Assembly (NCBI GenBank): GCA_021851875.1
Contig: JAJZQI010000007.1
Span: forward strand, 27,800-91,799
Length of the DNA: 64,000 nucleotides
Direction of reading: 5' to 3'
Source of the DNA: Pseudomonadota bacterium
Lineage (GTDB): Bacteria; Pseudomonadota; Gammaproteobacteria; Burkholderiales; JAJZQI01
Positions within the stretch are counted from its first letter, which is position 1. The number at the start of each line of letters is the position of its first letter. Below the pieces are notes generated by a model. That model did not search any database, was not told the DNA's origin, and saw only the letters and a program-made list of their open reading frames with translations. The translations under genes were made by a program, and so were the position numbers. Of the stretch, positions 16,343 to 41,232 are shown piece after piece.

Positions 16343-16354
16343 CAGGAGTAAAAA

Positions 16355-16996
16355 ATGATCGTCGAAAGCAAACTCAATCCGCAAAATGCCGTGTATGACT
16401 ATGTGTTGCCGGCCGGCGAAGCCTGGTTGCATGAAGTGAAAAAGGGCCAAATCTTCCGCATTCTCGATCTGGAAGGAAACCAGGCGGTCGACACCCTGTT
16501 CTACAGCACGCAGGATCCGGAAGAACGCTACAGCGCGGTAGACACCATCCGCGCGCAGGGCAATATCTATCTCACCGCCGGCACCAAACTGCTGTCGACT
16601 GAAGGCAATGTGCTGGTGACCATCGTGGCCGATACCTGCGGTCGCCACGACACCCTGGGCGGTGCCTGCGCGGCGGAGAGCAATACCGTGCGCTACGCAT
16701 TGAACAAGCGCCACATGCACAGCTGCCGTGACAGCTTTTTGCATGCGCTCGGCCACTGCGGCTGCGACATGACCAAGCGCGACATCACCCACAACGTTAA
16801 CTTCTTCATGAACGTGCCGGTGACCCCAAACGGTGAACTGACTTTTGCCGACGGGATTTCCGCGCCGGGCAAATATGTGGAAATGAAAGCGGAAATGGAT
16901 GTCACCGTGTTGATTTCCAATTGCCCGCAGCTCAACAACCCTTGCAATGCCTACAACCCGACGCCGGTACGCTTGTCGGTGTGGAACAGCAACTGA
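16355..16996 (+). CDS. Urea-carboxylase-associated family protein 2 (DUF1989; carboxyguanidine deiminase subunit-like)
   Basis: 213 aa. DUF1989 paralogue of the 15321 gene. AGGAG SD at 16345. Confidence 0.85.
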
Positions 16997-17072
16997 GAAA
17001 ACCATAACGAACACCTGCTGCGGGACGGCCCCGGCAGTACAGACAGGCGGGACGACCCGCGGGACACACACT

Positions 17073-20000: not shown

Positions 20001-20681
20001 ACCTGGACGCCGGAAAACGCCGTGGGCATCGGCGGCGCCTACATGTGCGTGTACGGCATGGAAGGCCCTGGCGGCTACCAGTTTGTCGGTCGTACCCTGC
20101 AAATGTGGAACCGTTGGCGCCAGACGGCCGACTTTGTTGATGGTAAGCCATGGCTGCTGCGCTTCTTCGACCAGATCCGCTTTTACCCGGTGTCTGAGGC
20201 CGAACTGCTGAAAATCCGCGAGGACTTCCCGCTCGGGCGCTTTAAGTTGAAAGTCGAAGAAGCGATGTTCAGCTTGAAGGACTACAACTCCTTCCTGCGC
20301 GACAACGCCGAATCCATCGGCGCATTCAAGACCACCCAGCAGGCTTCGTTCGATGCCGAGCGCGAGCGCTGGATCGCCAGTGGCCAGGCGGATTACGCCA
20401 GCGACGCCGGTGTGGCGGCCGCCGGGCCGGACAGCGAGCTGGATCTGCCGCCCAACGGACGGGCGTTGGCCACCCATGTGGCCGGTAACGTATGGAAGAT
20501 CGAGGTGGAAGAGGGCGCCCAGGTCAAAGCCGGCGATCCCCTGATCATCGTCGAGTCGATGAAAATGGAAATTCCCGTTACCGCGCCTTGCGACGGTGTT
20601 GTTTATAAATTGTTCTGTCGCGAGGGCGGGCAGGTGAGTGCCGGGCAGGATCTGCTGGTGCTGGTGGAGGAAGGAGACTGA
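17073..20681 (+). CDS. Urea/guanidine carboxylase (biotin-dependent, ATP-hydrolysing)
   Basis: Track ORF trimmed to ATG 17073 ([25 protein letters not shown], a biotin carboxylase N-terminus). ATP-grasp core, central KipA/KipI-like carboxyltransferase region, and C-terminal biotinylation motif IVESMKMEI. 1202 aa. Confidence 0.95.
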
Positions 20682-20682
20682 T

Positions 20683-24013: not shown

Positions 24014-24113
24014 TCACGGTCCGGCTCACCCCATGAGCCACTGCCGAACTATGCTGCACAAAGCCAGGCACTGCCTGTAGAATGATTCTCAGAAAAAAGA
24101 ATGATCGCCCGTT

Positions 24114-25793: not shown

Positions 25794-25795
25794 CC

Positions 25796-26065
25796 ATGCC
25801 GACAATCAGCATGTTCTACGGTATTCTGGTCGCAATGTATGTGCTCGATACTGACCGTCATCACCATCCGCACATTCACGTGCGCTACAACGAATTCAAG
25901 GCCGTTATTCAGATTCCCGACGGGGAGTTGCTGGATGGCGAATTGCCGGGGCGGCAAATGAAATTGCTGCAAGCCTGGCTGGAGATTCACCGCGATGAGC
26001 TGATGGCTGACTGGCATCTGGCCAGCACCGGGCAGACGCCGTTCAAGATTGACCCCTTGCGTTGA
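25796..26065 (+). CDS. DUF4160 domain protein
   Basis: 89 aa. MPTISMFYGILVAMYVLDTDRHHHPHIHVRY... is the characteristic DUF4160 N-terminus. Starts 2 nt after the mod stop. Confidence 0.8.
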   Translation: MPTISMFYGILVAMYVLDTDRHHHPHIHVRYNEFKAVIQIPDGELLDGELPGRQMKLLQAWLEIHRDELMADWHLASTGQTPFKIDPLR

Positions 26066-26077
26066 AGGAGGACAGCG

Positions 26078-26329
26078 ATGACGCCCGATGTGATTCTGGT
26101 TCGGCCTTTACCTGACTACACCTTGTTGGCGCAGTTCGCTACCGGTGAATGGCGCAGTTTCGATATGCGCGGTTTGCTGCAATACCCGGCATTTGCACCC
26201 TTGCAAGACCCGGCGCTGTTTCAGCGCGCTCATGTGCTGCACGGTACGGTGGCATGGACGGACGAGATCGACCTGTCGCCTGATACCTTGTATCTGCGCG
26301 GAGAGCCGGTGGAAGGAGTAGTGGCATGA
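26078..26329 (+). CDS. DUF2442 domain protein
   Basis: 83 aa. This family usually partners DUF4160. The stop overlaps the res ATG (ATGA). Confidence 0.75.
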   Translation: MTPDVILVRPLPDYTLLAQFATGEWRSFDMRGLLQYPAFAPLQDPALFQRAHVLHGTVAWTDEIDLSPDTLYLRGEPVEGVVA

Positions 26330-29028
26330 GTGCCTTTGCGCCCAAAACTTACCAGCAGCAGGTACTCGATAGCGTGGAGGCTTATTTCAAAGCCTGCCAC
26401 GAACTGCCGTCGTCTTCGATTGCCTTTACTGCCACCACCGAGCGCCTGTGGGGACGGGGTTTGTCGTACAACCCGTTGTCGGGCTTTCCGGGCGACATGC
26501 CGTACTTCTGCCTGCGCGTGCCCACCGGGGGCGGCAAGACCTGGCTGGCGGCGAAAAGCGTGCAGCTCGTCAACACCCATCTACTGCGTTGCGAGCACAG
26601 CGTGATTCTGTGGCTGGTGCCCAGCAAGCCGATTCGAGAGCAGACCATCAAGGCGCTGAAGGATCGCAGCCACCCGTATCACGCCGCACTGCGCGAGGCG
26701 GGTCCGATCACAGTGCTGGATCTGGAAGAAGCTAAGAGCGTCACTCGCGCCACGCTGGATACGTCTACTACTATCATTGTTGCCACGCGCCAGGCATTTC
26801 AGGTGGAGGAAGAAGAGTACCGTAAGGTATATCAGTCCAGCGGCGCGCTGATGCATCATTTTGACAACCTGTCGCCGACGCAGCGCGATGAGTTGCTGAC
26901 CGATGGGGAGGGCAGCGAGCGCACCACGCCATATTCGCTGGCCAATGTGCTGCGCCTGCGCCGGCCATTCGTGGTGGTGGACGAGGCACACAACAGCCGC
27001 ACCGAATTGGCTTTTGAAATGCTGGCGCGCTTCCGCCCCAGCGGGGTGATGGAGCTGACCGCCACGCCCGATTTGGAGCGCACGCCCAGCAATGTGCTGC
27101 ACAGCGTGTCCGCCGCCGAGTTGAAGGCGGAAGAAATGATCAAGCTGCCGGTAGTGCTGGAAACCGAGCCGAACTGGCAGCAGTGCCTGGCCGACGCCAT
27201 TGGCCGGCGCGATGCCCTGCACAAGCTCGCGGATGAGGAGAAACGGGCCGGTGCGCCTTATCTGCGCCCGATTATACTGATTCAGGCGGAGCCGCGTCGT
27301 GCCGGTATTGAGACGCTGGATGTCGAGAAAGTACGGCACGAGCTGATGACGAATCAGGGCATTCCCGCCAGCGAGATTGTGGTGGCCACCGGTGAAGAAA
27401 AAGGGTTGGAGCAGCTTGATGCCGATTACAAGCAGGGCATTCTTGATCCGGCCTGCCCGGTAAAGTTCGTCATTACTCAGAAGGCGCTGGCGGAAGGTTG
27501 GGACTGCCCGTTTGCCTACATTCTGGTGAGCATGGCATCGCTGCATTCTGCCACGGCGGTGGAACAGTTGCTCGGGCGTGTATTGCGCCAGCCGAATGCC
27601 AGCCATTGGCAGGCAAAGGCCTTGAACCAGTCCTATGCCTTCGTGGTGTCGCGCAATTTTGCCGAAACGGCATCGGCTTTGAGAGACCGTCTGGTAATGG
27701 GGGCCGGATTTGATCGGCGCGATGTGAATGAGTTTGTCACCGCTGCCAGAGCCGAACAGGGGCGGTTTGATCTGGAGGGCCACGCTGGGCGCGTAGTTGT
27801 CCGGCCCGTGGCGATTGCTCTATCAGAAAAGCCCGACCTGAAGAGCGTGCCCAAGACGGTGCGCGACAAGGTAAGCTGGGACAGCAAGCTCAATACTCTA
27901 ACCATCAGTACGCCTCTCACGGAAGATGAAACCGAAGCGCTCAAGGCCTCGGTCACGTCGGGAACCGCTGCTGCGGCAATTGTCGAAGCCGCCGAAGTCA
28001 GCCGCACCACGGCGATCGAGTTCTTTCAGACGCCTGCCGAACTGGGCGAACGTTTCCGTGTGCCCGTTTTGGCCTTACGCGTGCAGGGTGAATTGGCGCT
28101 GTTTGATGACCCGGAGGTACTGGAGTACCCATGGGATCTTTCGCCTTACGATGCCGCGCCGACAGCAGGCGACCTGACGGCAATGGGCGCGGCGCTGAAA
28201 GTGTCGGAAGGTGGCGAGATCGATATCGATGCAAGTGGCCACATGGTGTCGCGCTTTTTACCGGAATTACAGCGCGATCTGGGCCTGGTGTACCAGCCGG
28301 AAAACTGGGATGAAGTCCGCCTCGCCACCTGGCTGTGCCGCAACCTGCCCGAGCCGTCACTGACCCATGCCAGCAAGCAGGCGTTTGTCGCTGCGTGGCT
28401 CACCGATTTGTTACGCCGGGATGGCTTCACGCTGGCCCGCGCCAACCTGCAGAAGTTCCTGATCCGCAACCTGATCGAGGCGCGCATTCGTGAACTGCGC
28501 AAGCAGGCCGTGGGTAAGGCTTTCCAGCAGGCGCTATTCGGTGACGATGCGGCTAACCGCGTGGCGGTGACCGATCAATACGCCTTCGAGTTTCACGCGC
28601 AGGCTTACGCACCCAGCCGTGACTATGACGGTCGTTTCGGGCACTTCGACTTCCGCAAGCATTTCTATGGCCGTATGGGCGACTTCGACAGCAAGGAAGA
28701 GTTCGAATGCGCCTGCCAGTTGGATATGTGGGCGCAACAGGGCCGCATTCAGTTTTGGGTGCGCAACCTCGTGCGGCGTGAAGGCAGTTCGTTTTTTCTG
28801 CAGAAGGCCGACGGGCGATTTTACCCGGACTTCCTCTGCCAGTTACCGGGTCCGGCAGGTCAGCCGGGGCCGGTTCTTGCGGTGGAATACAAGGGCGCGG
28901 ATCGATGGAATGCGGCTGAAGATGACCGCCTGATCGGTAGCCTATGGGCCAACCTGTCGGAAGGTCGTTGCCGGTTTGTGATGGTCAGGGACAAGCGTTG
29001 GGATTCGATTGAGCCGCTGTTGATATGA
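26326..29028 (+). CDS. res: Type III restriction endonuclease Res subunit (SF2 helicase + PD-ExK nuclease)
   Basis: 900 aa. Helicase motif I VPTGGGKTW, motif II VVVDEAHNS, motif III ELTATP. C-terminal nuclease motif YPDFL...VLAVEYKG. Confidence 0.9.
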   Translation: MSAFAPKTYQQQVLDSVEAYFKACHELPSSSIAFTATTERLWGRGLSYNPLSGFPGDMPYFCLRVPTGGGKTWLAAKSVQLVNTHLLRCEHSVILWLVPSKPIREQTIKALKDRSHPYHAALREAGPITVLDLEEAKSVTRATLDTSTTIIVATRQAFQVEEEEYRKVYQSSGALMHHFDNLSPTQRDELLTDGEGSERTTPYSLANVLRLRRPFVVVDEAHNSRTELAFEMLARFRPSGVMELTATPDLERTPSNVLHSVSAAELKAEEMIKLPVVLETEPNWQQCLADAIGRRDALHKLADEEKRAGAPYLRPIILIQAEPRRAGIETLDVEKVRHELMTNQGIPASEIVVATGEEKGLEQLDADYKQGILDPACPVKFVITQKALAEGWDCPFAYILVSMASLHSATAVEQLLGRVLRQPNASHWQAKALNQSYAFVVSRNFAETASALRDRLVMGAGFDRRDVNEFVTAARAEQGRFDLEGHAGRVVVRPVAIALSEKPDLKSVPKTVRDKVSWDSKLNTLTISTPLTEDETEALKASVTSGTAAAAIVEAAEVSRTTAIEFFQTPAELGERFRVPVLALRVQGELALFDDPEVLEYPWDLSPYDAAPTAGDLTAMGAALKVSEGGEIDIDASGHMVSRFLPELQRDLGLVYQPENWDEVRLATWLCRNLPEPSLTHASKQAFVAAWLTDLLRRDGFTLARANLQKFLIRNLIEARIRELRKQAVGKAFQQALFGDDAANRVAVTDQYAFEFHAQAYAPSRDYDGRFGHFDFRKHFYGRMGDFDSKEEFECACQLDMWAQQGRIQFWVRNLVRREGSSFFLQKADGRFYPDFLCQLPGPAGQPGPVLAVEYKGADRWNAAEDDRLIGSLWANLSEGRCRFVMVRDKRWDSIEPLLI

Positions 29029-30491
29029 CCCTCGACTACGCCACCCTCGACGCCCTGCGTACCCACCACCCTGCGTGGCGGCTTTTGCGTTCGGACCATG
29101 CGCCGCTGGTGGCGAGCTTTCTGCAACGGGTATTCGTGGCGCCCAATGTGCGGGTGATGGCGGTAGCGGATTTGGCGGAGGCGCTGGAGGACGAGTTGTA
29201 TGCCTTGCGCTTGCATTGGGGTGAAACTGCTTTTCCCAAGCCCGCGCTGGAGTACCTGAACGATTGGGCCGCGACAGACAAGGGCTGGCTGCGCAAGTTC
29301 TACCGCCCCGGCACGGACGAGGCGCAATTCGATTTAACGCCGGCCACCGAAAAGGCCATTGCCTGGCTGGCGCAGCTTTCCGAGCGGCAATTTGTGGGTA
29401 CCGAGTCGCGTTTGCTCACGCTGTTTGACCTGCTCAAGCAGATGAGCGAAGGCAGCGAGGCCGACCCGGCCAAGCGTATCGCCGAACTGCACAAGAAGCG
29501 TGAAGAGATCGATGCCGAGATTGCCCGGGTGCTGGCGGGCGATGTGCCGCTGCTGGATGACACGGCGGTGAAGGATCGCTTCCAGCAGTTCATGCAGGGC
29601 GCGCGCGAGTTGCTGACTGACTTTCGCGAGGTGGAGCACAACTTTCGTCAACTGGACCGGCGCGTGCGCGAGCGCATCGCCCTGTGGGAAGGCGGCCCAA
29701 ATCAGGGGCGTGGCGCGCTGCTGGAAGATATCATGGGCGAGCGCGATGCCATTGCCGATTCCGATCAGGGCAAGAGCTTTCGCGCCTTTTGGGATTTTTT
29801 GCTATCCAGCCGTCGGCAGGAGGAGTTGACCGGGCTGCTGGATCGCGTGCTGGCGCTGCCTGCCGTGAAGGACCTGAATCCCGATACCCGCACCCGCCGC
29901 GTGCATTACGACTGGATGGAAGCGGGTGAGCATACCCAGCGGACCATCGCCTCCTTGTCGCAGCAGTTGCGCCGTTTTCTGGATGATCAGGCCTGGCTGG
30001 AAAACCGGCGCATCATGGACATACTGCATGGCATTGAGAGCAAAGCGCTCGCCCTGCGCGATGCGCCTCCGTCAGGTAATGTCATGGAAATGGCTGAAAT
30101 CGGCGCGGATATTGAGCTGGCGATGGAGCGCCCATTGTTTGCGCCGGTGAATAGGCCGGTGATTGCCGACCTGGCCCTGCAGGCGGGTGATGAAGACATT
30201 GACGCTCAGGCACTGTTCGATCAGGTGGTTGTCGATAAGGCGCGGCTCACCCGCCATATCCGTCATGCCTTGCAGGACCGGGCTCAGACTACCTTGATCG
30301 AGCTGGTGACGAGCCAGCCCTTGCAGCAGGGGCTGGCCGAGTTGGTGGCTTATCTGCAATTGGGCTGTGAAGACTTCAATACGGTGATGGATGAGGATAT
30401 TTCCGAGCCCATCGGCTGGCAGACAGTGACTTCGGATGGTCAAATCATCAACCGCAGCGCAAAGCTGCCCCGCGTGATTTTTATACGCTGA
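29025..30491 (+). CDS. jetA: Wadjet JetA (DUF3375, kleisin-like)
   Basis: 488 aa. ATG overlaps the res stop (ATGA at 29025-29028). The length, the N-terminus ...LRTHHPAWRLLRSDHAPLVASFLQRVF, and its position before the DUF4194 / SMC-like / Toprim genes all fit JetA. Confidence 0.85.
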   Translation: MTLDYATLDALRTHHPAWRLLRSDHAPLVASFLQRVFVAPNVRVMAVADLAEALEDELYALRLHWGETAFPKPALEYLNDWAATDKGWLRKFYRPGTDEAQFDLTPATEKAIAWLAQLSERQFVGTESRLLTLFDLLKQMSEGSEADPAKRIAELHKKREEIDAEIARVLAGDVPLLDDTAVKDRFQQFMQGARELLTDFREVEHNFRQLDRRVRERIALWEGGPNQGRGALLEDIMGERDAIADSDQGKSFRAFWDFLLSSRRQEELTGLLDRVLALPAVKDLNPDTRTRRVHYDWMEAGEHTQRTIASLSQQLRRFLDDQAWLENRRIMDILHGIESKALALRDAPPSGNVMEMAEIGADIELAMERPLFAPVNRPVIADLALQAGDEDIDAQALFDQVVVDKARLTRHIRHALQDRAQTTLIELVTSQPLQQGLAELVAYLQLGCEDFNTVMDEDISEPIGWQTVTSDGQIINRSAKLPRVIFIR

Positions 30492-30528
30492 ACAGGAACA
30501 CAAGCAGAGACGCTCTGTGATACAGGAC

Positions 30529-31206
30529 ATGGAAGAAGAATTCTCGCACAGCCCATCGGTACCGACTCCGACTGTGGCGCCAAACGCGGATTTGTCGGTG
30601 TTGCTGATCGGCTTGCTCAAGAGCGTGCTCTACCGTGATGGCGACGAGCGCCAGTGGGCGGCACTGCTCAGCCTGCAAGCGCGAGTACGGGATTATGTGG
30701 CAGTGCTGAATCTTGAATTGGTGCTGGACGAGGCCGAGGGTTATGCATTTCTGAAAAGCCGCCCCGAACCGGCCGATGACGATCCTTCACCACGTTTGCC
30801 GCGGCTGGTGGCGCGCCGGCCGCTTTCCTTTGCCGTGAGTTTGCTGCTGGCCTTGCTGCGCAAGAAGCTGGCCGAGTTCGATGCAGGCGGCGGTGATACG
30901 CGACTGGTGCTGTCCCGCGACGACATTGTGGAGCTGGTGCGGGTGTTTCTGCCAGATGGTCCGAATGAGGCCAAGCTGATCGACCAGATCGAGACCACGA
31001 TCAACAAGGTGGCCGAGCTGGGTTTTCTGCAGAAACTCAAACCTGCCGGTGGCGCCGCAGCCGAGCAAGCCACTTACGAGGTGAGGCGAATTCTGAAGGC
31101 CTTTGTTGATGCTCAGTGGCTGGCTGAATTTGATGCGCGCCTGGCCGCCTATCAGTCGCAGCTGGGCGGTGTGATGCATGTCAGGGAGGAGGCGGGCCAT
31201 GAATGA
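30529..31206 (+). CDS. jetB: Wadjet JetB (DUF4194, KITE-like)
   Basis: About 225 aa. Acidic N-terminus followed by [23 protein letters not shown]. The start could instead be GTG 30517. Confidence 0.85.
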
Positions 31207-34200
31207 GCCGCAGTCATTGGGCCTTGACTTCTGCGCGAATGATACCTTGTCCGGCTTTCGGCTGACTCGGCTGGAGGTGTTCAACTGGGGTACCTTTGAC
31301 AGCCGGGTGTGGACGCTGCAACTGGACGGCAAGAATGGGCTGCTTACGGGCGATATCGGCTCGGGTAAATCCACGCTGGTAGATGCCATTACCACCCTGC
31401 TGGTGCCTGCCAATCGTATTGCATACAACAAAGCGGCCGGTGCGGACAGCAAGGAAAGAACGCTGCGCTCCTATGTGCTGGGACATTACAAATCCGAGCG
31501 CAATGAAGTGACGGGCGCAGCGAAGCCGGTGAGCCTGCGTGACCAGAATAACTATTCGGTCATTCTGGGGGTGTTCCAGAACGCAGGCTACGACCAGACA
31601 GTGACCCTGGCGCAGGTATTCTGGATGAAAGAGGCGCAGGGGCAGCCGGCGCGGTTCTTTCTGGGGGCAGAACGGGCGCTTTCCATTGCAAGCGACTTTG
31701 CCCATTTCGGCTCGGACATTGCTCAGCTGCGCAAGAAGCTGCGCGGTCTGGGTGCTGAGTTGCAAGACAGTTTCCCGCCCTATGCCGCCTGGTTCCGGCG
31801 GCGCTTCGGCATTGAAAACGATCAGGCGCTGGAGTTGTTCCACCAAACGGTGTCGATGAAATCGGTCGGTAACCTGACGGACTTCGTGCGCAGCCATATG
31901 CTTGAACCTTTCGAGGTTGGCCCGCGCCTGCAAGCCTTGATCGGCCATTTCGATGATCTTAATCGCGCCCATCAGGCTGTGCTGAAAGCCCAGCAGCAGG
32001 TTGAATTGCTCACACCTTTGATTGCGGACTGCGGCCGCCACAGTGCGTTGGTAGCTGAGGTCGACAGTTTGCGCAGATGCCGGGACAGCTTGCGGCCCTA
32101 CTTTGCGGGCCTGAAACGGGAGCTGATCGACAAACGGCTGAGTTCTCTGGCTGAAGAGTGGGAGCGGATGGGGGCTCTGGTACAGAAGCTGGACGCTGCC
32201 CATGAGGCGCAAGGCCAGCAAGTTGATGAACTGAAGCAGGCTATCAACGACAACGGCGGTGACCGGCTGGAACGGCTTGCCGTCGAGATACGCAAGAAAG
32301 AGCAGTTGCGGGATACGCGTAAAACCAAGGCTGACCGCTACAGTGAGTTGGCTGCTGTGCTGGGCGAGCCGCCGGTAACAGATGCCGCCGCCTTCGCCGC
32401 GCAACGCGGCAAGTATCAAGACTGGCGCGAGGAGGCACGCAACCGCGATGCCGACCTGCAGAACGTGCTCACCGAGCACAGCGTGACCTTGCGCCAGGGC
32501 AGGCAGGAACATGAGCAACAGAGCGCGGAAATCGAAAGTCTCAAGCGGCGGCGTAGCAATATTGACGACCAGCAGATTCAGATGCGTGCCGCACTGTGTG
32601 CGGCACTGGGGCTGAGCGCCGATGACATGCCGTTTGCCGGAGAACTGATACAGGTGCGTGACGATGAGCGCGATTGGGAAGGCGCTGCCGAGCGCTTGCT
32701 GCGCGGCTTCGGTCTGGCTCTGCTGGTGCCCGATACGCACTACAAGGCCGTGGCCGAATGGGTGGATAGCGCCCATTTGCGCGGTCGCCTGGTGTATTTC
32801 CATGTGCGATCACGCAAGGCTGCTGAACTGCCTGAACTGCACCGTGATTCTCTGGTACGCAAGCTGGCCATCAAGCCTGACTCGCCGTACTACGATTGGC
32901 TGGAACGCGAGCTTGCCCATCGGTTTGATGTGGCCTGTTGCGCCACGCAAGAGCAGTTCCGCCGCGAGGCGCGGGCCATCACCCGCGCGGGCCAGATTAA
33001 AGACCCGAGCGGCCGGCACGAAAAGGACGACCGCCATCACATCGACGATCGCAGCCGCTATGTGCTGGGCTGGAGCAATAGCGCCAAGATTGCTGCACTG
33101 GAGGCCAAGCGTCGCCAACTTGAAACAAGGCTCGGTGAGGTGGGCAGCGAAATTGGCATCATCCAGAAAGAACGCGCTGGGCTTTCCAGCCGTCTTGATG
33201 CGCTGACCCGACTTGAAGAGTTCACGACATACGATGAGCTGGATTGGGCCAGTGTCGCCACCGAGATTGCACAACTGACTGATGAGCGTAGTCGGCTGGA
33301 GTCGGCCTCGGATGTGCTAAAGCAGTTGAATGACAGCCTGCGCACCTTGCAGCAGGCGCAGAAGGAAACCGCAGAAGCACTGCAAGCTGCGCGTGAGAAG
33401 CGCGCCAAGGTGGAGCAGCGGCGCGCGGATGCGCAAGACCTGCGGCAGCAAACAGCGGAACGGCTTGACGGTTTTGCCATCGACGATGATTTGGCAGCCA
33501 GGCTCGAAGCTATGCGCACCGAAGCGCTGGGCGAGCATCAGCTCACGGTTGAATCCTGCGATAACCGTGAGCAGGATGTCCGCGCCTGGCTGCAGACACG
33601 AATTGACGCCGAAGATTTGAAACTCAAACGTCTGGCAGAGAAGATCATCAAAGCCATGGCTTCTTTCAAGGAGGCGTTCAAGCTGGAGACGGCCGAGATG
33701 GATGCCAGCCTTGAAGCGGTTTTTGAGTATGAAAATCTGCTGATGCAGTTGAATCGCGACGACCTGCCGCGCTTTGTGGCGCGATTCAAGGAACTGCTCA
33801 ATGTCAACACCATCAACGAGATCGCCAACTTCAATGCCCAGCTGGCTCGCGAGCGCGAAACCATCAAGGAGCGCATCGCCCATATCAACAAATCACTTGG
33901 CGAGATTGACTACAATCCCGGCCGCTACATTGTGCTGGAATGGCAAGCCAGTCCCGATGCTGAAATCCGTGACTTCCAGCAGGAATTGCGTGCTTGTACC
34001 GAGGGTGCTGTCACCGGCTCGGACGATGCCCAGTATTCAGAGGCAAAATTCTTGCAGGTCAAGGCTATCATCGACCGCTTTCGTGGGCGCGAAGGGTTGT
34101 CTGAGCAAGATCGCCGCTGGACGGCCAAGGTTACCGATGTGCGCAACTGGTTTCTTTTTGCCGCCAGTGAACGCTGGCGTGAGGACAACAGCGAGCACGA

Positions 34201-34591
34201 ACACTACTCAGACTCCGGCGGCAAGTCGGGCGGACAGAAGGAAAAACTGGCCTATACCATTCTGGCCGCCAGTCTGGCGTACCAGTTCGGTCTGGAATGG
34301 GGCGCGGTGCGTTCCCGCTCTTTCCGCTTCGTGGTTATTGATGAGGCGTTCGGGCGTGGTTCGGATGAGTCTGCCCAATACGGTCTGAAATTGTTCCGGC
34401 AACTCAACCTGCAACTGCTGATCGTGACGCCGCTGCAGAAAATCCACATCATCGAACCTTACGTTGCCAGTGTCGGTTTCGTCCATAACGAAGGTGGGCG
34501 GGCATCGAAGCTGCGTAATCTTTCCATTGAGGAATACCGGGCGCAGAAGGCCTTGACGCCAATCCAGGCTGTGCAGGAGCCTGAACAGTGA
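31199..34591 (+). CDS. jetC: Wadjet JetC (SMC-like ABC ATPase)
   Basis: 1130 aa. Starts ...[15 protein letters not shown], Walker [11 protein letters not shown], very long coiled-coil middle, C-terminal signature/Walker B ...[21 protein letters not shown]...[13 protein letters not shown] overlaps the jetB stop by 8 nt. Confidence 0.9.
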
Positions 34592-35802
34592 GCTGGACTG
34601 GCCCGAAAGAATTGAAAGCTCAGTTGGCGCGCCTTTGGGAGCGCGGCGAACTGTTGCGGGATGCGGTGACGGGCAATGAGCGTTTTCCTTTACGCCTGTC
34701 CCTCAAATCTCCGGGTTCAGCGGATATTACCGATCGTTTTGACGAAGTCCGCGCGTGGGCCGCCGAATTGGCTTCTGCGAACTCGGTTTGCGTGGAGTGG
34801 CGGGAGATCCGCCACCGTGTCCAGGGCGCGCAGAGGTTGCCGGCTTGTGTGCGGGTTGAGACGCTGGAAGATGCGTTAACCTGGTTGGGCAAGCGCAACG
34901 AATGGGATCGCTTCGCCGCGCAAGTTTCCGTCACCCGGCAAACGCATCCCGCTTTGCTGCCCTGGCTGGAAAAGCGTCCACTGCTGGCTCTGGAGCTATC
35001 CAGCGAATGGCCCCGTTTGCTGGCTGTAGTGACATGGCTTGTCGAGCATCCGCATCCCGGCATTTACGTGCGGCAGGTGGATTTGCCCGGCATACACAGT
35101 AAATTCATCGAAGCCCATCGCAGTGTACTGGCCGAGTTACTTGATCTGGCATTGCCTGCTGATGCTGTGGACACCAGCAAAACCGGTATCAGCCAGTTTT
35201 CTGCCCGCTATGGTTTTCTGGAAAAGCCGACGCGTATTCGCTTCCGTGTGCTTGACCCCGCCATTCAGATCGTGCCTGGTACGACATCTCCTGACGTGAC
35301 TCTGGATGCCGATAGTTTCAGTCGCCTGAGGCTCGGCGTGCAGCGTGTATTCATTACAGAAAACGAGACCAATTTTCTGGCCTTTCCTCAGGTAGCCAAT
35401 GCGATGGTGATTTTTGGCGCGGGTTACGGTTGGGATGCGCTGGCCCGCGGCCGTTGGCTAGGTAACTGCTCAATCTATTATTGGGGTGATATTGACACTC
35501 ATGGTTTTGGCATTCTGGATCAGCTTCGCGGCCACTTTGATCATGTGGTTTCGTTTTTGATGGACCGGGCAACGCTTGATGCGCATGCAGCTATTTGGGG
35601 ACATGAGGACAATCCTCTACGTGCGGACTTGCACCGGCTGACAACTGAGGAGAGAGCCCTCTATGATGACTTGTGCAACAACCGCATTCGCACTGGATTG
35701 CGGCTGGAGCAGGAATACATCGGTTTCCAATGGCTGACTCAGCGCCTGCGGTTGCTTGAGTGCGCGACTGAACCCGTTGATGGGTTATTCATTTCAAGTT
35801 AA
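34588..35802 (+). CDS. jetD: Wadjet JetD (DUF3322 + Toprim/DUF2220 nuclease)
   Basis: 404 aa. Toprim residues [10 protein letters not shown] and [14 protein letters not shown]. The GTG start overlaps the jetC stop (GTGA). Confidence 0.9.
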
Positions 35803-35828: not shown

Positions 35829-36632
35829 CTACAGCATTTCCCCTTCCATCTGCCGCCACACGCGGCCGCTGCCGTGTTCCACCACCAGTTTGTTCCAGGC
35901 CGGCACCAGCATGCCTGTCTGGAAGGCTATTTGTCCTTCACGGAAGGGCAGGGTGGAGTGTTCGATTTTCCAAGGTGTTTCTCCCTGACGTCGGCCAAAA
36001 CTGATTTCGAAATCGAGCCAGCTCAGCAGGCGTTCACTGTTGGGCTGGACGGCCTGGATCAGCGAGGCCAGATTCTGGGCCGGCGGTAGTTGCCCCAGGC
36101 GCGGGCGCACATACATGAAATAAGCGCCGCAAACCAGTACCCAGGCAGGTCTTGCGGGTGGCTGGCCATCTTCTTCCGCCAGTTGCAGCACCCAATTGGG
36201 CCCGATACTTTCCGGCAGGCGTTGCCAGTGTTCCATGTAATCGGCCTCTACGCCTGTTTCGATCAGCTCGTCGCGGCTGAACTGCATATGGCCGATATCC
36301 CGTTTGCCACTGGCTGGTTGGAAATCGACCTTGCGGTGCCAGATACATTGGTCCTTCTGCACCTGAGTGATACCGGCAAAGCCTTTTTGGCAGGCAAGCC
36401 ATTCAAGCTGTTCGTCCGTGCAGTCGGCCAGTTGAGTGACACCGCTAAAATCGGGGCGACCGGCCGGGATGCGTAAATCGGCATGACAATGCGCTGCCTG
36501 CAGCCAGTAAACGCGTGTTTTGGTGTCGTTGGTCGTGGCCTGGCGGGCGCTACGGGCACTGGCCGGTATGCGCAGCAGTGTACGTTGCCAAACGCCGGGA
36601 TAGTGTGATGGAACGGCAGGATGTTTACTCAT
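35829..36632 (-). CDS. Hypothetical protein (267 aa), no recognisable family
   Basis: Track ORF 35829-36986 trimmed to ATG 36632; the longer version overlaps the MBL gene out of frame. ATGAGTAA overlap with the MBL stop. Codon usage resembles its neighbours. No motif recognised. Confidence 0.65.
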   Translation of the reverse strand: MSKHPAVPSHYPGVWQRTLLRIPASARSARQATTNDTKTRVYWLQAAHCHADLRIPAGRPDFSGVTQLADCTDEQLEWLACQKGFAGITQVQKDQCIWHRKVDFQPASGKRDIGHMQFSRDELIETGVEADYMEHWQRLPESIGPNWVLQLAEEDGQPPARPAWVLVCGAYFMYVRPRLGQLPPAQNLASLIQAVQPNSERLLSWLDFEISFGRRQGETPWKIEHSTLPFREGQIAFQTGMLVPAWNKLVVEHGSGRVWRQMEGEML

Positions 36633-37407
36633 GGAATTCCGGGAATTGTTTGAGGGTACGCCAGAAGGCGATGTCGTGGTTGGGCCACAGTTCTGCCTGT
36701 TCCTGTTTTGCCAGTTGCTTGAGCTTGCGGATGCTGTCGAGCGCCTGGTCCTCGCGCTCCTGCCAGCATAGACCGGGCGCGACTTCTTGTTCAATGTTTT
36801 CGCGTAAGTCGGCGGCATCGCCGCACAGCACGATGGACGGGCCTTTGGGCAGTTCGATCCACAGCGACATGTGACCGGCCGTGTGGCCTGGGGTGGACAC
36901 GGCGCGCACGCCGTGCACGAGATCGTATTCGCCTTGCAGCACCTTCCAGCGGTAGTCGCCGGCGAAATCGTCGGCAAAGTAGGCAATGTCCTGGCCGCTT
37001 TGCGCCGCTGCTAACTCATCCTTCTGCACATGGATTTCCGCCCCGCCGACTTCGCCCAGCCCACCGGCGTGGTCGAAGTGCAAATGGCCGATGAACACCA
37101 CGTCGACATCGTCCGGTTTGAGTCCCAGTCGTGCGAGGTGGTTTGGCAAACGGTCCTCTGCGCGCATTTCCGGCGGGCCGAAAGGAAATACCTCCGGATC
37201 GTAATAGCGCTGGCGCAGGGCAGGGTCGGCAATTTTGCAGTAATCGCAGCCTACATCGTAGAGAATGCGGCCCTGGGTCGTTTCAATCAGGTAAGCCAGA
37301 ATCGGCGCTTCGATGATTTGTCCGGCGCCACGGTTGCGGGTGGAGAGCGACTTGTCGTATTTGTGCGTGGCGGTCAGCAGCGGCCACAAACGTAAAACCT
37401 GGCTCAT
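36625..37407 (-). CDS. MBL-fold hydrolase (N-acyl-homoserine-lactonase / pyridoxolactonase-like)
   Basis: 260 aa. Zinc motif HLHFDHAGG, plus downstream TPGHTAGH and a D...H. Confidence 0.85.
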   Translation of the reverse strand: MSQVLRLWPLLTATHKYDKSLSTRNRGAGQIIEAPILAYLIETTQGRILYDVGCDYCKIADPALRQRYYDPEVFPFGPPEMRAEDRLPNHLARLGLKPDDVDVVFIGHLHFDHAGGLGEVGGAEIHVQKDELAAAQSGQDIAYFADDFAGDYRWKVLQGEYDLVHGVRAVSTPGHTAGHMSLWIELPKGPSIVLCGDAADLRENIEQEVAPGLCWQEREDQALDSIRKLKQLAKQEQAELWPNHDIAFWRTLKQFPEFHE

Positions 37408-38048
37408 GATGAAACTTCCTGTGATTCAATTTGCTGTAGCAATTCGCTGCTGTGCACCACGCGGCCGAAAATTCCGCCTTCCACTCCGACCATTTGCAGT
37501 GCAGCCGTTTGCAGCTCCGGATAGGGTGAGGCGCAGCCGTCGGCGACCAGCAGGCATTCATACCCCCGGTCGATGGCGTCGCGCAGGGTGGAGTGAACGC
37601 ATACTTCGGTTGTGACACCGGTGAAAATGAGCCGGCGAATGCCGCGGTTGGTCAGCAGACCGGGCAGATCGGTATTGACGAAAGCGCTGTAGCCCGGCTT
37701 GTCGACCACGGGTTCACCGGCCTGCGGCTGTAATTCGTCGATGATGTCGTGGCCGTGTTCGCCGCGAATGAGCAGGCGGCCAAGCGGCCCCTGTGAGCCG
37801 ATTTCGGCACCGGCCACGCGGCTGCGGGCGAGTTTGCTCGACGGGCAGTCGGACAGATCCGGCCGGTGACCTTCGCGGGTGTGGACGATGAGCATGCCGG
37901 CCCGGCGCGCGGCCGACAGCAGCGCCTGAATGGTCGCAATCGGCTGGCGTAATGCGCTGATATCAAGGCCGGCGCCGGCAGCATAGCCGCCCGGGTCGAG
38001 AAAATCGCGCTGCATGTCGATGACCAGCAGGGCCGTGCACGTCATCAC
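37404..38048 (-). CDS. Isochorismatase-like cysteine hydrolase
   Basis: 214 aa. Catalytic D-K-C pattern: LLVIDMQRDF, VVDKPGYSAF, GVTTEVCVHST. ATGA overlaps on both sides. Confidence 0.85.
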   Translation of the reverse strand: MMTCTALLVIDMQRDFLDPGGYAAGAGLDISALRQPIATIQALLSAARRAGMLIVHTREGHRPDLSDCPSSKLARSRVAGAEIGSQGPLGRLLIRGEHGHDIIDELQPQAGEPVVDKPGYSAFVNTDLPGLLTNRGIRRLIFTGVTTEVCVHSTLRDAIDRGYECLLVADGCASPYPELQTAALQMVGVEGGIFGRVVHSSELLQQIESQEVSS

Positions 38049-38932
38049 GTATTTTCCTCCTGCGGTTCGGTCAAGGCTTCCAGCATGCCTGCTGCAAGGA
38101 TCAGGCCGGCACCGATGCCCTCCGACAGCGTCAGCGATTCGTCATTGATCAGGACGGCTGAAACCAGCGCAACCACCAGTTCCGACAGCAGCAGGATGCT
38201 CGCCTTGCCGGCCGGCAGGCGGGAAACGCCGAAATAGGTGGCCAGCGTGCCGGGCAGAATCCATATCAGTCCAAGGATAGGCAGGGCCAGCCAGTATTGC
38301 GGCGCAGCCGCCGGGGCGGATGACCCTTCCCAGCCGAACATGAAGGCGGAGAAGATGATGCAGCCGATAAATACCGCCATGATGCGGCCGCTTTCCGGCA
38401 GGTGGAAACCCGCCCGGATGGTGACGTTGTTAAGAGCGAAGGCGACGCCGGCGGACAATGCCAGGAGGTCGATGCCCGACAGCGGGGCGGCGAACAGGTC
38501 GGGGCCGCCCAGGGTCATGGCCAGGCCGGTCAGCGCGACGGTCAGCGACAGCAGACGCAGGCGGGTGATCGGTTCGCCCAGTGCCACGCGGGCTGCCAGG
38601 ATGGTCCATACCGGCGCCAGATAAAACAGCAGCATGACCCGGACCACGCTGCCGTAGGCCAGGGCGCTGGCAAATGAAGCGTTGGCCCAGCCGCCGAACA
38701 GGGCGATGAGCAGCAGCATGCCGGCATGGGCCCGTAGCGGTGCCTTATCCAGGCGCCACACGGCCGGTAGCATGGCCAAGGCAGCGCTGGCATTGGCAGC
38801 CATTTGAATCAGGCCGCTGGGGAAGCCCTGATCGGCCAATTGCTTGAGAGGCCACCAGAAGAGACCCCAGACGAGCGATCCGCCGAGTAGAACGGAGACG
38901 GCAAGGGATTGTTGTTGCTTGCTATATGGCAT
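38045..38932 (-). CDS. DMT-superfamily (EamA-like) transporter
   Basis: 295 aa. About ten predicted TM helices arranged as two EamA-like repeats. Confidence 0.8.
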   Translation of the reverse strand: MPYSKQQQSLAVSVLLGGSLVWGLFWWPLKQLADQGFPSGLIQMAANASAALAMLPAVWRLDKAPLRAHAGMLLLIALFGGWANASFASALAYGSVVRVMLLFYLAPVWTILAARVALGEPITRLRLLSLTVALTGLAMTLGGPDLFAAPLSGIDLLALSAGVAFALNNVTIRAGFHLPESGRIMAVFIGCIIFSAFMFGWEGSSAPAAAPQYWLALPILGLIWILPGTLATYFGVSRLPAGKASILLLSELVVALVSAVLINDESLTLSEGIGAGLILAAGMLEALTEPQEENT

Positions 38933-38959: not shown

Positions 38960-38999
38960 AGAAAAAAGGGTCGCTGTGGTTGTTGGGAAACAGCGACCC
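38960..38999 (-). terminator. Rho-independent terminator/attenuator after the SBP gene
   Basis: On the minus strand, GGGTCGCTG-N14-CAGCGACCC is followed by TTTTTTCTT. It lies only about 28 nt upstream of the EamA ATG. Confidence 0.75.
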
Positions 39000-39018: not shown

Positions 39019-40017
39019 TTATTTTGCTTGCAGGGCTTTTACAAAACGCTCATCCAGCGTTGCCGGGATCGCTACCGCTTGCCTGATCTGGCCGTTCTTG
39101 ACCAGAATGTCGTTGATGACGCCGCCGCTGACAAAGTAGGACTTGGTGTCCTTGCCCGGCGCGAAAGGCGTCAGCATCTCATTGAAGGGAATGTTGTACA
39201 CCCCCTTGAGCTGCTCCATGGCTTCCTTGTCGGATACGCCCATGGCTTTGCCGATCAGCTTGGCGGCTTCGGCCGGCTTGCTCTTCATGTACTCCAGGCC
39301 ATCCAGGTAAGACTGGATCAGTGCCTTGATTTCCGCGCCGTTCTTGTCGATGTGCTTGCTGTCGAACACCAGCACGTCGGCAATCAGGCCCGGTGCATTG
39401 CGGGAAGAATAAATCACCTGGAATTTGCCACCGCCGCTGCTGAGGATTTGCGACACATTCGGCTCATAGGTCACGCCGGCCGGGGTGGCACCCGAGGCCA
39501 TGGCAGCCGGAACAGCCTCCGGGGTCATGTTGACCGGCTTGATGTCCTTGTCCGTCATGCCGTTGGTTTTCAGGGCATAGGAAATCAGAAAGTCGGATGG
39601 CGACAACGGGGCATAGGCGACCTTCTTGCCTTTCAGGTCGGTGATTTTGCTGATCGGCTTGGCGGCCAGCACGGCATCACCACCGAAGGAGTAGTCGATC
39701 GGCATGACCACTTTGTAGACCTTGCCCTGACCAGCGGCACCGATCACCTGGTCGTAGGTCATCAGCGTGCCATCCACGGCGCCGCCGGCCATGGCGGAAG
39801 GCAGCATGGCCGGGTCGGCAAAGGTTTGCAGGCTGACGTTGAGGCCGTGCTTCTCGTACAGTTTCAGGGCGTCGGCAACATAAAAGGGCGAATAGCCGAT
39901 CCAGGTGGTCAGGCCGATTTTCATGTTGCTGGCGGCGTGGGCGGTGCTGATGCTGGCAGCTGCGGCAACGGCGCCTGCAGTCAGAAAGAGCTTGTGCAGC
40001 AGAGTGGGCTTGGACAT
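39019..40017 (-). CDS. ABC transporter substrate-binding protein (NMT1/THI5-like, NitT/TauT family)
   Basis: 332 aa. Signal peptide ...AAAASISTAHA. SBP fold motifs GLTTWIGYSPFYVA. Same transporter family as the permease/ATPase at 13635-15292, which have no SBP gene of their own. Confidence 0.9.
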   Translation of the reverse strand: MSKPTLLHKLFLTAGAVAAAASISTAHAASNMKIGLTTWIGYSPFYVADALKLYEKHGLNVSLQTFADPAMLPSAMAGGAVDGTLMTYDQVIGAAGQGKVYKVVMPIDYSFGGDAVLAAKPISKITDLKGKKVAYAPLSPSDFLISYALKTNGMTDKDIKPVNMTPEAVPAAMASGATPAGVTYEPNVSQILSSGGGKFQVIYSSRNAPGLIADVLVFDSKHIDKNGAEIKALIQSYLDGLEYMKSKPAEAAKLIGKAMGVSDKEAMEQLKGVYNIPFNEMLTPFAPGKDTKSYFVSGGVINDILVKNGQIRQAVAIPATLDERFVKALQAK

Positions 40018-40044: not shown

Positions 40045-40180
40045 TTGCGGGAGAGCGGCATGGCGCGCGTTCTCCCGGGTTTTTGTCCCTCCGTGCAGTC
40101 CAGCGGCATGGCAGGACCGGCGGCTCTCGGACCAGTCGCATGCGCTGTATTCATGCCGGAACCCTAGCCGCCTTATCGCA
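40045..40180 (-). promoter_or_regulatory. Second ykkC / guanidine-I riboswitch
   Basis: Minus-strand RNA reads GGCGGCUAGGGUUCCGGCAUGAAUACAGCGCAUGCGACUGGUCCGAGAGCCGCC...CACGGAGGGACAAAAACCCGGGAGA. These are the same conserved blocks as the copy at 13383. Downstream CUCUCCCG can pair with CGGGAGA. GAGGAG SD lies 8 nt before the SBP ATG. Confidence 0.9.
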
Positions 40181-40227: not shown

Positions 40228-40243
40228 AGCAAACTATATGCCA
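40228..40243 (-). promoter_or_regulatory. Sigma-54-type -24/-12 promoter (candidate) for the riboswitch-SBP unit
   Basis: Minus strand TGGCAT-ATAGT-TTGCT (GG-N10-GC). Predicted TSS is near 40217, about 45 nt upstream of the aptamer. Confidence 0.5.
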
Positions 40244-40360: not shown

Positions 40361-41134
40361 TCACTTGAATGGGAAGGCGATGATGGCCTTGACCACCCAC
40401 TTGTCGGTCGCCTGGACATAACCCCGGCCGATGCCGAAGTTGATATCATATCCCTGCTGTTCATAATCCAGCGCGGCATACAGGTAATGGTTGCGCTGGT
40501 CCTTCGGCAGCGGGTGATCAATGGCGCCGAAGCCGCCGTAGTATTCAAAACCGGCGCGGGTGGTGCCGCTCACGCGGCGGCTGATTTTCAGCGCCGGCTC
40601 GAAGGACGGATCATGGTCGACGTTGTTGCTCAGTTCGGCATCCAGAATCGGGTTGAAGCTGACCAGCCAGTTGTATGTGCGGTAGCCGATAATGGGGCGC
40701 AGCTCCATGCCCCAATTGCTCTCGGCAACGCGGCGGGCGTAATAACCCAGTTCGGTGTTGATGCCCCAGAAGAAAGGCTGATCGTCCGGCCGGGGAGCCA
40801 TGTATTTCAGGCGCAGGCGCAGGCCGTTGTTGTACGTTTCGCCGCCGGGACTCATGGCGAAGGGAACATACAGACCGGCTTCCAGTTGCTTGGTGATGCC
40901 GTAGGAGAATTCCGGCGTGACCTGCAGCATGTGGTTGGGCGGCATCTCGCCGGCATAAGCGGGTGCGGTGTTGCCTTTGACGGAGTAGTTGACGTGCAAT
41001 TCAAGGCCGAATTCGCCGGGGTCGTCCATTTCCTCCGTGTATACCTGGATTTCATCCGGCGCGGCCTGAACAAGAGGGGCGGTGCAAGCAAGTATGGCGG
41101 CGGCCAGAATAGATGGGGCGGTGCGGTGCAGCAT
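40361..41134 (-). CDS. Outer-membrane beta-barrel protein (MetA-pathway/transporter-like OMP family)
   Basis: Signal peptide MLHRTAPSILAAAILACTAPLVQA. Alternating beta-strand pattern with C-terminal ...KAIIAFPFK. Start trimmed from TTG 41170 to ATG 41134. Confidence 0.7.
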   Translation of the reverse strand: MLHRTAPSILAAAILACTAPLVQAAPDEIQVYTEEMDDPGEFGLELHVNYSVKGNTAPAYAGEMPPNHMLQVTPEFSYGITKQLEAGLYVPFAMSPGGETYNNGLRLRLKYMAPRPDDQPFFWGINTELGYYARRVAESNWGMELRPIIGYRTYNWLVSFNPILDAELSNNVDHDPSFEPALKISRRVSGTTRAGFEYYGGFGAIDHPLPKDQRNHYLYAALDYEQQGYDINFGIGRGYVQATDKWVVKAIIAFPFK

Positions 41135-41216: not shown

Positions 41217-41232
41217 TGGCACGGCCCTTGCT
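41217..41232 (+). promoter_or_regulatory. Near-consensus sigma-54 -24/-12 element
   Basis: TGGCAC-GGCCC-TTGCT. A weaker tandem copy TGGCAA-GTCGT-TCGCA lies at 41192-41207. It is about 260 nt upstream of dusB on the same strand. Confidence 0.35.

Follow-up and report, generated by a model that had tools for sequence, protein, structure and literature searches.

In a 64-kb stretch of a Pseudomonadota genome (contig JAJZQI010000007.1; hereafter the window), we analyzed a four-gene cassette that lies behind a Guanidine-I (ykkC) riboswitch and a substrate-binding protein (SBP) gene, and that encodes a drug/metabolite transporter (DMT) of the EamA type, an isochorismatase-like hydrolase (IHL), a metallo-beta-lactamase-fold (MBL) protein and a 267-aa protein. 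We find that this cassette is a pared-down version of an extension to the guanidine regulon that is widespread and, as yet, undescribed, and that it probably acts as an accessory guanidine-liberating module of that regulon, freeing guanidine from modified guanidines as a source of nitrogen. Two enzymes carry this reading. Judged by its sequence, the hydrolase belongs to the clade of the guanylurea hydrolase GuuH-MET, with guanylurea activity predicted, and the 267-aa protein, which an original prediction made from the same DNA had left as an orphan, is a homologue of the characterized N-(hydroxymethyl)guanidine lyase MgdL.

Gene layout and predicted transcription

The SBP gene and the cassette form five consecutive minus-strand genes, which together with their predicted control elements are arranged as follows, in the direction of transcription:

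40228-40243 (-): sigma-54-type -24/-12 element TGGCAT-N5-TTGCT, a consensus match and predicted promoter
40070-40178 (-): Guanidine-I (ykkC) riboswitch aptamer RF00442 (Rfam 93.2 bits vs. gathering 63, model 1-107 of 107)
39019-40017 (-): periplasmic SBP gene (NMT1/SsuA type), 332 aa, first of the five genes
38962-38999 (-): terminator-like hairpin followed by U6, with a 10-bp GC-rich stem and a 12-nt loop, between the SBP and DMT genes
38045-38932 (-): DMT/EamA transporter gene, 295 aa
37404-38048 (-): IHL gene, 214 aa from GTG or 213 aa from the ATG at 38045
36625-37407 (-): MBL-fold protein gene, 260 aa
35829-36632 (-): MgdL-family protein gene (the earlier "orphan"), 267 aa

The open reading frame (ORF) list and the raw sequence confirm the four cassette genes at the coordinates of the original prediction, together with two of the start-stop overlaps it described: ATGA at 37407-37404 between the IHL and MBL genes, and ATGAGTAA at 36632-36625 between the MBL and MgdL-homologue genes. 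The overlap at the first junction, given as ATGA at 38045-38048, actually reads GTGATGA; here the DMT stop codon (TGA, 38047-38045) shares 4 nt (GTGA) with a GTG start of the IHL gene, or 1 nt with an alternative start, the ATG at 38045, which is the one used in the public gene call (213 aa). The protein motifs that had been pointed out, namely IDMQ, DKPGYSAF and TTEVCV in the hydrolase and HLHFDH in the MBL protein, are all present.

Upstream of the SBP gene, we searched for a sigma-54 promoter defined by -24 GG and -12 GC in the form TGGCAC-N5-TTGCW, at a suitable distance and conserved in relatives, and found a candidate at 40228-40243. The window holds 2 exact consensus matches vs. 0.26 expected, and the element is kept in a related locus (L083, 85% IHL identity) in which the surrounding leader and flanks diverge. 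A perfect element (TGGCAC-N5-TTGCT) also stands at 41217-41232 (+), upstream of dusB-fis-purH-purD, an operon for which it is unexpected. Directly upstream of the 40228-40243 element, at ~40361-41095 (-), lies a gene for a conserved 244-aa hypothetical protein that has no Pfam match and is also found in the related loci L083-L085.

The riboswitch at 40070-40178 precedes the SBP gene, and operons of this type in other genomes are also headed by homologous copies. To place this arrangement in context, we used 80 loci seeded on the MgdL homologue (ORPH-seeded loci), which were mapped by tblastn and scanned with a covariance model derived from eight copies of the riboswitch, with public gene calls added. 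Of these 80 loci, 29 carry an upstream riboswitch in the same-strand gene chain, and the SBP is the first gene after it in 19 of the 29, as well as in L083-85 and L093-95; a riboswitch also precedes the SBP gene in the independently seeded Thiomonas and Acidithiobacillus loci. The window SBP itself has Pfam NMT1 and NMT1_2 matches, with NCBIfam SsuA_fam and ABC_peri_uca below their cut-offs.

The hairpin and U-tract between the SBP and DMT genes have the form of a Rho-independent terminator (a GC-rich stem and then a U-tract; predicted). We found it by folding; a consensus terminator scan with a loop limit of 8 nt misses its 12-nt loop. The 101-nt fold around it has z = -2.9, and within the relative locus group L083-85 the stem is invariant and the loop variable. 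A comparable hairpin and T-run directly follow the SBP stop codon, a few nt before the next gene, in L005, L023, L025, L031 and L060. We consider the element to be probably a partial terminator or an mRNA-stabilizing element. The distance from U-tract to first ATG, originally put at about 28 nt, measures 29 nt and leaves no promoter room after the U-tract. Because of this gap, the riboswitch-first and SBP-first order in more than 20 loci, and the similar hairpins in other lineages, read-through from the sigma-54/riboswitch SBP unit, as first proposed, remains the simplest reading of how the cassette would be transcribed.

A predicted guanylurea hydrolase

The hydrolase matches the isochorismatase-like family PF00857 (157 bits vs. 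cut-off 27), with its triad D11, K117 and C150 aligned with those of BiuH and TrtA, and its best PDB relatives are these same two enzymes (6AZO, 6XJM, 6XIX; E 1e-60 to 1e-65, same fold). Its closest characterized relative is NDO41_26705 of plasmid pMET-2, at 64.3% identity (67% over the core); in a tblastn search against plasmids, the three top matches, all at 64.3%, were pMET-2, pKHPS1 and pKHPS2. NDO41_26705 adjoins a nucleoside deaminase gene on pMET-2, and since this matches the description of BB_00025 (GuuH-MET), we take the two to be the same. In purified form, BB_00025 of Pseudomonas mendocina MET hydrolyzed guanylurea at 11 umol/min/mg and was nearly inactive on biuret (PMC9800807).

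Core identity to GuuH-MET (67%) exceeds that to BiuH (51-53%) and TrtA (52%), and in a neighbor-joining distance tree—built without bootstrap and leaving out GuuH of strain GU—GuuH-MET nests among the operon-linked IHLs, with BiuH and TrtA outside. The substrate-contacting Gln of these two enzymes (BiuH Q215 and TrtA Q202; PMC7948467) provides a further distinction. The corresponding residue is Glu in the window hydrolase (E190), in all 27 locus orthologues plus L086 (Gallionellaceae), in a Nitrosospira plasmid copy (whose gene context is uninformative) and in GuuH-MET; BiuH (two structures), TrtA, a second, TrtA-like copy in L010 and four outgroup homologues that are 54-56% identical all have Gln. 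We propose Glu at the BiuH Q215 position as a signature of the clade, a suggestion of our own for which there is no published criterion, and a reasonable reading is that the E190 carboxylate would face a guanidinium group.

Other assignments fared less well. The BiuH model (NF050097) is the top NCBIfam model but scores 261.7 bits vs. a cut-off of 370, and position 215 is Glu; of the TrtA consensus residues F35, N41, E160 and Q202, which correspond to Y22, L28, E148 and E190 in the window, only E160 is shared; and RutB, nicotinamidase and YcaC reach NCBIfam scores far below that of BiuH (nicotinamidase, 44 vs. cut-off 174). The placement that the original prediction had recommended as a check thus points to the guanylurea-hydrolase clade rather than to nicotinamidases, isochorismatases, BiuH or TrtA.

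A predicted lyase of the MgdL family

The 267-aa protein has no match in Pfam or NCBIfam, and its 434 close homologues and the 1494 representative clusters at 50% identity returned by a profile search are all unnamed. An AlphaFold2 model (pLDDT 92.4, pTM 0.90) is mostly beta, with a barrel and a second sheet, for which Foldseek against PDB returned only remote calycin/FABP-like barrels and yeast YLR301w. The MgdL assignment came instead via the literature (Sinn et al. 2025), with the MgdL sequence taken from Supplementary Data 1 of that study: BLASTP against MgdL of Vreelandella boliviensis (A0A265DXW6) gives 37% identity over 239 aa (E = 1e-35).

In MgdL, mutagenesis supports D49 and R51 as catalytic, and D112 and E126 bind the guanidine group in the model (PMC12508155). 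These four residues correspond to D52, R54, D112 and E125 of the window protein and are all invariant in a 23-sequence alignment, the equivalence of E126 and E125 being taken from the alignment of Sinn et al. rather than from the BLASTP gap placement. The family is represented in the same published alignment by Sulfurimicrobium lacus, whose protein shares 53% identity with that of the window, and by Gallionella acididurans; both also occur among our homologues or loci, and the published Chai-1 model of MgdL is described in the same terms as the fold seen here, as a beta-barrel with a second sheet (PMC12508155). On account of this homology, the four kept residues and the family members in that alignment, we place the former orphan in the MgdL family on sequence grounds, and predict lyase activity for it. 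The family is also much larger than reported, at 1494 clusters at 50% identity vs. the 216 UniProt90 hits given for MgdL by Sinn et al. (PMC12508155).

The MBL protein and the EamA transporter

The MBL protein matches Pfam Lactamase_B and is 37% identical to the lactonase AiiA, with which it shares the HLHFDH motif and all seven metal ligands (H108, H110, D112, H113, H175, D197 and H244 in the window protein). Tyr194 of AiiA, which contacts the lactone carbonyl, is Asp (D200) in the MBL protein, within a GDAAD sequence found in 38/38 locus orthologues. The family is highly conserved, with 68-80% identity among the matches listed, including Thiomonas, Acidithiobacillus, Gallionella and Sulfuriferula, and the listed homologues are annotated throughout as 'AHL lactonase family' (AHL, N-acyl homoserine lactone). 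We rejected an identity as an AiiA-type AHL lactonase (NF045699), for which the protein scores 157.9 bits vs. a cut-off of 375 and lacks Tyr194; it also falls below the AttM, AhlS, AidB and YtnP model cut-offs. Its active site and genomic context lead us to favor a guanidine-related substrate over quorum quenching.

The DMT protein carries two EamA repeats (PF00892, 78.3 bits vs. 28.2, E 8.8e-22) and is a 10-transmembrane protein. An EamA gene stands in the same-strand gene chain in 24 of the 80 related loci.

Conservation across related loci

In Beta-, Gamma- and Alphaproteobacteria, the cassette genes occur together with guanidine riboswitches and carboxylase genes. Of the 80 loci, 36 have carboxylase-pathway genes no more than 10 kb away, and 51 have either a riboswitch or such genes; all five independently seeded loci (three IHL-seeded, two MBL-seeded) also stand beside carboxylase genes. 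The tie to ykkC riboswitches and guanidine carboxylase genes that the original prediction had asked about is thus found across many genomes. It also appears to be independent of the regulator, because LysR-regulated Acidocella loci keep the whole gene set without a riboswitch.

From these loci, with support from independent public gene calls with Pfam, we recognize a recurrent operon that lies next to, or convergent with, the carboxylase operon. It can be compared with several shorter arrangements:

Recurrent operon, first part: riboswitch, SBP, FA_desaturase-family membrane protein (PF00487), one or two short-chain dehydrogenases/reductases (SDRs), EamA
Recurrent operon, second part: creatininase-family protein (PF02633), IHL, MBL, sometimes a PAS-GGDEF-EAL protein, MgdL homologue
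L044, L045, L051: riboswitch, MgdL homologue
L032: riboswitch, desaturase-like, MgdL homologue
L035: riboswitch, desaturase-like, MBL, MgdL homologue
Four Thiobacillus loci: riboswitch, GGDEF-EAL, MgdL homologue

The window and its nearest relatives represent the shortest SBP-led version of the recurrent operon, and no desaturase-like, SDR or creatininase-like gene occurs anywhere in the 64 kb.

Several of the related loci have features of their own. In Thiobacillus and relatives (L003, L007, L014, L022), a Guanidine-I riboswitch lies ~2.4-2.8 kb upstream of the match, directly before the PAS-GGDEF-EAL gene, an order that suggests guanidine-gated cyclic di-GMP signaling. In Methylotenera (L044, 9777-9893; L045, 9789-9908; L051, 372-488), the MgdL homologue itself comes 93-116 nt after the riboswitch and is followed by APC-family permeases, with no oxygenase or carboxylase gene nearby. 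A Sulfuriferula metagenome-assembled genome (L029) carries a Guanidine-II (mini-ykkC) riboswitch at 16232-16278 (-), between cgdB and the carboxylase gene, the same placement in which V. boliviensis is reported to have a Guanidine-II riboswitch (PMC12508155); none was detected in the window. Finally, in three Gallionellaceae/Sideroxydans loci without an MgdL homologue (L086-L088), a 281-284-aa protein with a weak AP_endonuc_2 (TIM-barrel) match is encoded at ~4982-5880, between allophanate hydrolase and SBP, and the loci continue into Gcw_chp porin, glnK-amtB and cyanase genes.

The partner carboxylase unit and the defense island

The remainder of the guanidine system lies on the plus strand, on the far side of a defense island:

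13403-22473 (+): partner unit, comprising riboswitch, ATP-binding cassette (ABC) permease, ABC ATPase, CgdA, CgdB, guanidine/urea carboxylase and allophanate hydrolase
13403-13510 (+): second Guanidine-I riboswitch (Rfam 85.5 bits)
22559-35802 (+): defense island, 13.3 kb between the convergent guanidine units
29025-35802 (+): Wadjet jetABCD (DUF3375, DUF4194, SMC-like JetC, JetD)

The carboxylase matches NCBIfam urea_carbox (TIGR02712) at 1921 bits, above cut-off, as do UAAP1/UAAP2 (the two DUF1989 proteins, CgdA/CgdB) and allophanate hydrolase with their own models. The genes of the ABC importer are split, with permease and ATPase in the carboxylase unit and the SBP in the cassette unit, and we presume the SBP to be the partner of the permease and ATPase at 13635-15292. 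Upstream of the carboxylase-unit riboswitch, which comes first in window coordinates, are two more sigma-54-like elements (TGGCAC/T-N5-ATGCT) at 13098-13113 and 13356-13371 (+), because of which both guanidine units may depend on RpoN. Genes resembling the glycolate oxidase genes GlcD/E/F (FAD_binding_4, FAD-oxidase_C, CCG/Fe-S) at 9079-12852 (+) end just upstream of the same unit; these would matter only if the products of the lyase were of the glyoxylate type.

The original prediction had described the carboxylase operon as convergent with the cassette, and this needs correction: it is Wadjet that directly converges, with jetD facing the cassette, and the carboxylase operon lies beyond the island, 13.4 kb from the cassette. 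A 1137-aa convergent ORF considered as a possible carboxylase was identified as JetC. The island contains an AAA_14/DUF4143 ATPase, an N6/N4 DNA methylase, a ResIII helicase and the complete Wadjet jetABCD. At the same spot in L083 (GCA_027356645.1), an OLD/AAA_15 protein and a zeta toxin replace Wadjet in a kept frame of methyltransferase, ResIII and AAA_14, and the island looks like a variable defense hot spot. In relatives without the island (for example, L025, L029, L033, L039 and L041), the last gene of the cassette is directly convergent with allophanate hydrolase.

Discussion

Our results point to a module that would work in the following way. Nitrogen limitation, through sigma-54, and free guanidine, through the Guanidine-I riboswitch, would together permit transcription from before the SBP gene; the hairpin and U-tract behind that gene would stop part of the transcripts or stabilize the SBP message, and the remaining transcripts would continue into the four translationally coupled genes. 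Co-transcription and induction are in this sense predictions from the layout. The GuuH-type amidohydrolase would convert guanylurea, or a close N-acyl or N-carbamoyl guanidine, to guanidine, ammonia and CO2, and the MgdL-type lyase would convert N-(hydroxymethyl)guanidine, or a similar guanidine hemiaminal, to guanidine and an aldehyde; the exact substrates, like the direction of transport, are extrapolated from homology. The AiiA-like MBL enzyme may open a probably cationic cyclic ester or amide precursor, and the EamA transporter may move one of the compounds handled by the cassette. Free guanidine would then be assimilated through the enzymes of the operon at 13.4-22.5 kb (carboxylase, CgdAB and allophanate hydrolase), which would also supply the permease and ATPase needed by the SBP. 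The conversion of a substituted guanidine into guanidine that was first suggested for this locus fits the two identifiable enzymes.

Several observations weigh against this reading. The main weakness concerns the lyase: no hydroxylase that would supply its hemiaminal substrate is found in the window. Pfam scans of 38 window ORFs, run without a search with the MgdH sequence itself, gave no match to an MgdH-type 2-oxoglutarate (2OG)-Fe(II) oxygenase, and the usual companion of the lyase, the FA_desaturase-family gene, is missing from the whole window as well. Linkage is also incomplete, as 12/80 lyase loci show no linked gene within the sequence examined and three IHL-seeded loci have no lyase gene. 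For the hydrolase, 64% identity leaves the substrate unfixed, because BiuH and TrtA differ in substrate at ~50% identity. Guanylurea hydrolase activity has been shown only for BB_00025 and the GuuH of strain GU, which are only 44.8% identical to each other (PMC9800807), and the activity thus appears to be polyphyletic. Finally, the hairpin behind the SBP gene has the look of a competent intrinsic terminator past which we infer read-through, and the roles given to the MBL and DMT proteins are guesses.

The three enzymes might instead act in sequence on one cyclic guanidino compound, in a linear pathway akin to allantoin degradation, of which the window would hold a trimmed core. Here the MBL enzyme would open the ring, the hydrolase would remove a carbamoyl or acyl group, and the lyase would split an alpha-hydroxy or hemiaminal guanidine into guanidine and an aldehyde or glyoxylate, with guanidinohydantoin-type guanine-oxidation products or creatinine/glycocyamidine oxidation products as candidate substrates. 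Such a pathway would suit the IHL and MBL genes, which are coupled by ATGA here and adjacent in every locus having both, whichever one served as the seed; the larger operon, which with its added oxygenase, SDRs and creatininase-family cyclic amidohydrolase looks like a multi-step catabolic route; the LysR-regulated Acidocella version, which keeps the set together; and the acidic swaps E190 in the hydrolase and D200 in the MBL protein, which would fit one cationic substrate series. Oxidized guanine has, moreover, been proposed in a review as the main natural guanidine source (PMC12623156). Independent functions nevertheless fit better with the loci that have the lyase alone, oxygenase and lyase, or IHL and MBL without lyase; no database match indicates any of the candidate substrates; and GuuH-MET acts on free guanylurea in a different gene context. 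We therefore regard a single linear pathway as unlikely.

Less probable still is a module for detoxification or export, in which the EamA transporter would expel guanidinium or guanylurea and the enzymes would remove toxic adducts, such as formaldehyde-guanidine hemiaminals. Both identifiable enzymes release guanidine rather than remove it, the unit begins with an uptake-type SBP whose permease and ATPase lie in the assimilation operon, the sigma-54 promoter points to nitrogen scavenging, and the neighbors are carboxylase, glnK-amtB and cyanase genes. These points stand against a number of observations that would suit such a module, namely that guanidine riboswitches often control exporters and SMR-family exporters also carry guanylurea, that the riboswitch senses guanidine and not its derivatives, that the lyase gene stands alone behind a riboswitch in methylotrophic Methylotenera, where formaldehyde is abundant, and that N-(hydroxymethyl)guanidine is unusually stable (PMC12508155). 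A cassette unrelated to guanidine, with a full terminator and its own promoter and with a quorum-quenching lactonase, a nicotinamidase-type amidase and a transporter beside the SBP by chance, would agree with the public annotations ('N-acyl homoserine lactonase family' for the MBL protein, 'nicotinamidase-related amidase' for the IHL) and with the intrinsic-terminator shape of the hairpin and U6, but is very improbable given that the curated models fail (AiiA 158 vs. 375, nicotinamidase 44 vs. 174), that the substrate-binding Tyr of AiiA is missing in 38/38 orthologues, that the U-tract is followed by no promoter room, that the genes follow guanidine riboswitches and carboxylase genes across three proteobacterial classes, and that the last gene falls in a characterized guanidine-metabolism family.

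Canonical Guanidine-I-controlled carboxylase operons with a NitT/TauT ABC importer were reportedly described by Nelson et al. in 2017 and Schneider/Sinn et al. in 2020-21. As summarized in reviews (PMC12186494, PMC11410670), these operons have a riboswitch before SBP/ABC genes, followed by CgdAB, carboxylase and allophanate hydrolase, all of which are found in the window; here, however, the system is split into two riboswitch units with a 13-kb defense island between them, and the SBP unit has four extra genes. Close to the accessory module proposed here is the Guanidine-I-controlled carboxylase operon of Vreelandella (Halomonas) boliviensis, which includes MgdH, a methylguanidine-hydroxylating 2OG dioxygenase, and MgdL (Sinn et al. 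2025, PMC12508155). Both are Guanidine-I systems that bring together transport, carboxylase-pathway and guanidine-releasing enzymes, with lyases that are 37% identical and agree in all four named functional residues. They differ in that no MgdH was found here, and the membrane FA_desaturase-family di-iron protein that related Betaproteobacteria usually have is missing too; the window lyase also lies in a separate riboswitch unit with SBP, EamA, GuuH-type hydrolase and MBL genes, none of which is in the Vreelandella operon as described. The Vreelandella riboswitch binds guanidine and not methylguanidine, yet controls mgdH and mgdL (PMC12508155), and product-induced expression of the kind we propose thus has a direct precedent.

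The pMET-2 operon that encodes the guanylurea hydrolase BB_00025 (Martinez-Vaz et al. 2022, PMC9800807) offers a second comparison. In our data (L081, CP098607.1 19195-22903), it consists of SBP, nucleoside deaminase, GuuH, permease and ATPase genes under LysR regulation. Its hydrolase shares with ours the clade and the Glu at the BiuH Q215 position, and its gene likewise comes with those of a NitT/TauT-type ABC transporter, of which the permease shares 63% and the ATPase 60% identity with its counterpart in the window. In contrast, it is IS-flanked and has no riboswitch, its SBP is only 33% identical to that of the window, it has a nucleoside deaminase gene beside the hydrolase (none here), and its hydrolase reads TTDVC vs. 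TTEVC in the window. Among more distant relatives, BiuH and TrtA share fold and D-K-C triad with the window hydrolase at 51-53% identity but have Gln (Q215/Q202) in place of Glu, and the AiiA lactonases (PDB 2A7M, 3DHA) share HLHFDH and the di-zinc ligands with the MBL protein at 37% identity but have Tyr194 in place of Asp and lack the guanidine-metabolism context.

These comparisons also delimit what is new. The hydrolase and lyase are new members of families characterized in 2022 and 2025, and guanidine-liberating operon extensions are already a known idea; the original statement that no pathway had been described accordingly holds for the gene combination, and does not extend to these two proteins. 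In the searchable literature, we found no description of this gene combination, of the Asp200 MBL subfamily or of the EamA partner, nor of MgdL associated with a membrane di-iron oxygenase in place of MgdH, nor of a riboswitch directly before an MgdL homologue alone.

Work on riboswitches and on the nitrogen cycle has yet to settle the natural origin of free guanidine, and few guanidine-releasing enzymes are known. The locus described here joins GuuH-MET-like and MgdL-like enzymes in one riboswitch-led unit in chemolithoautotrophic and methylotrophic Proteobacteria, and adds to them an EamA transporter and a conserved AiiA-like hydrolase that is publicly named as a quorum-quenching lactonase. 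The related loci also indicate that the usual partner of the MgdL family is a membrane di-iron oxygenase, not MgdH, and that an MgdL-family gene can be the sole one behind a guanidine riboswitch. More tentatively, and with considerable doubt, the window genes might be the trimmed core of a widespread, undescribed 8-10-gene riboswitch operon that degrades a natural, possibly cyclic guanidino compound of the oxidized-guanine or creatinine type. If so, the operon would indicate where much of the free guanidine in nature arises, the MBL protein would be a new enzyme that opens the ring of a guanidine derivative by hydrolysis, and the FA_desaturase-family protein would be a non-homologous replacement for MgdH. 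Cultured carriers, namely Thiomonas (for example, LR131947.1), Acidithiobacillus ferriphilus and Sulfurimicrobium lacus, make these ideas directly testable.

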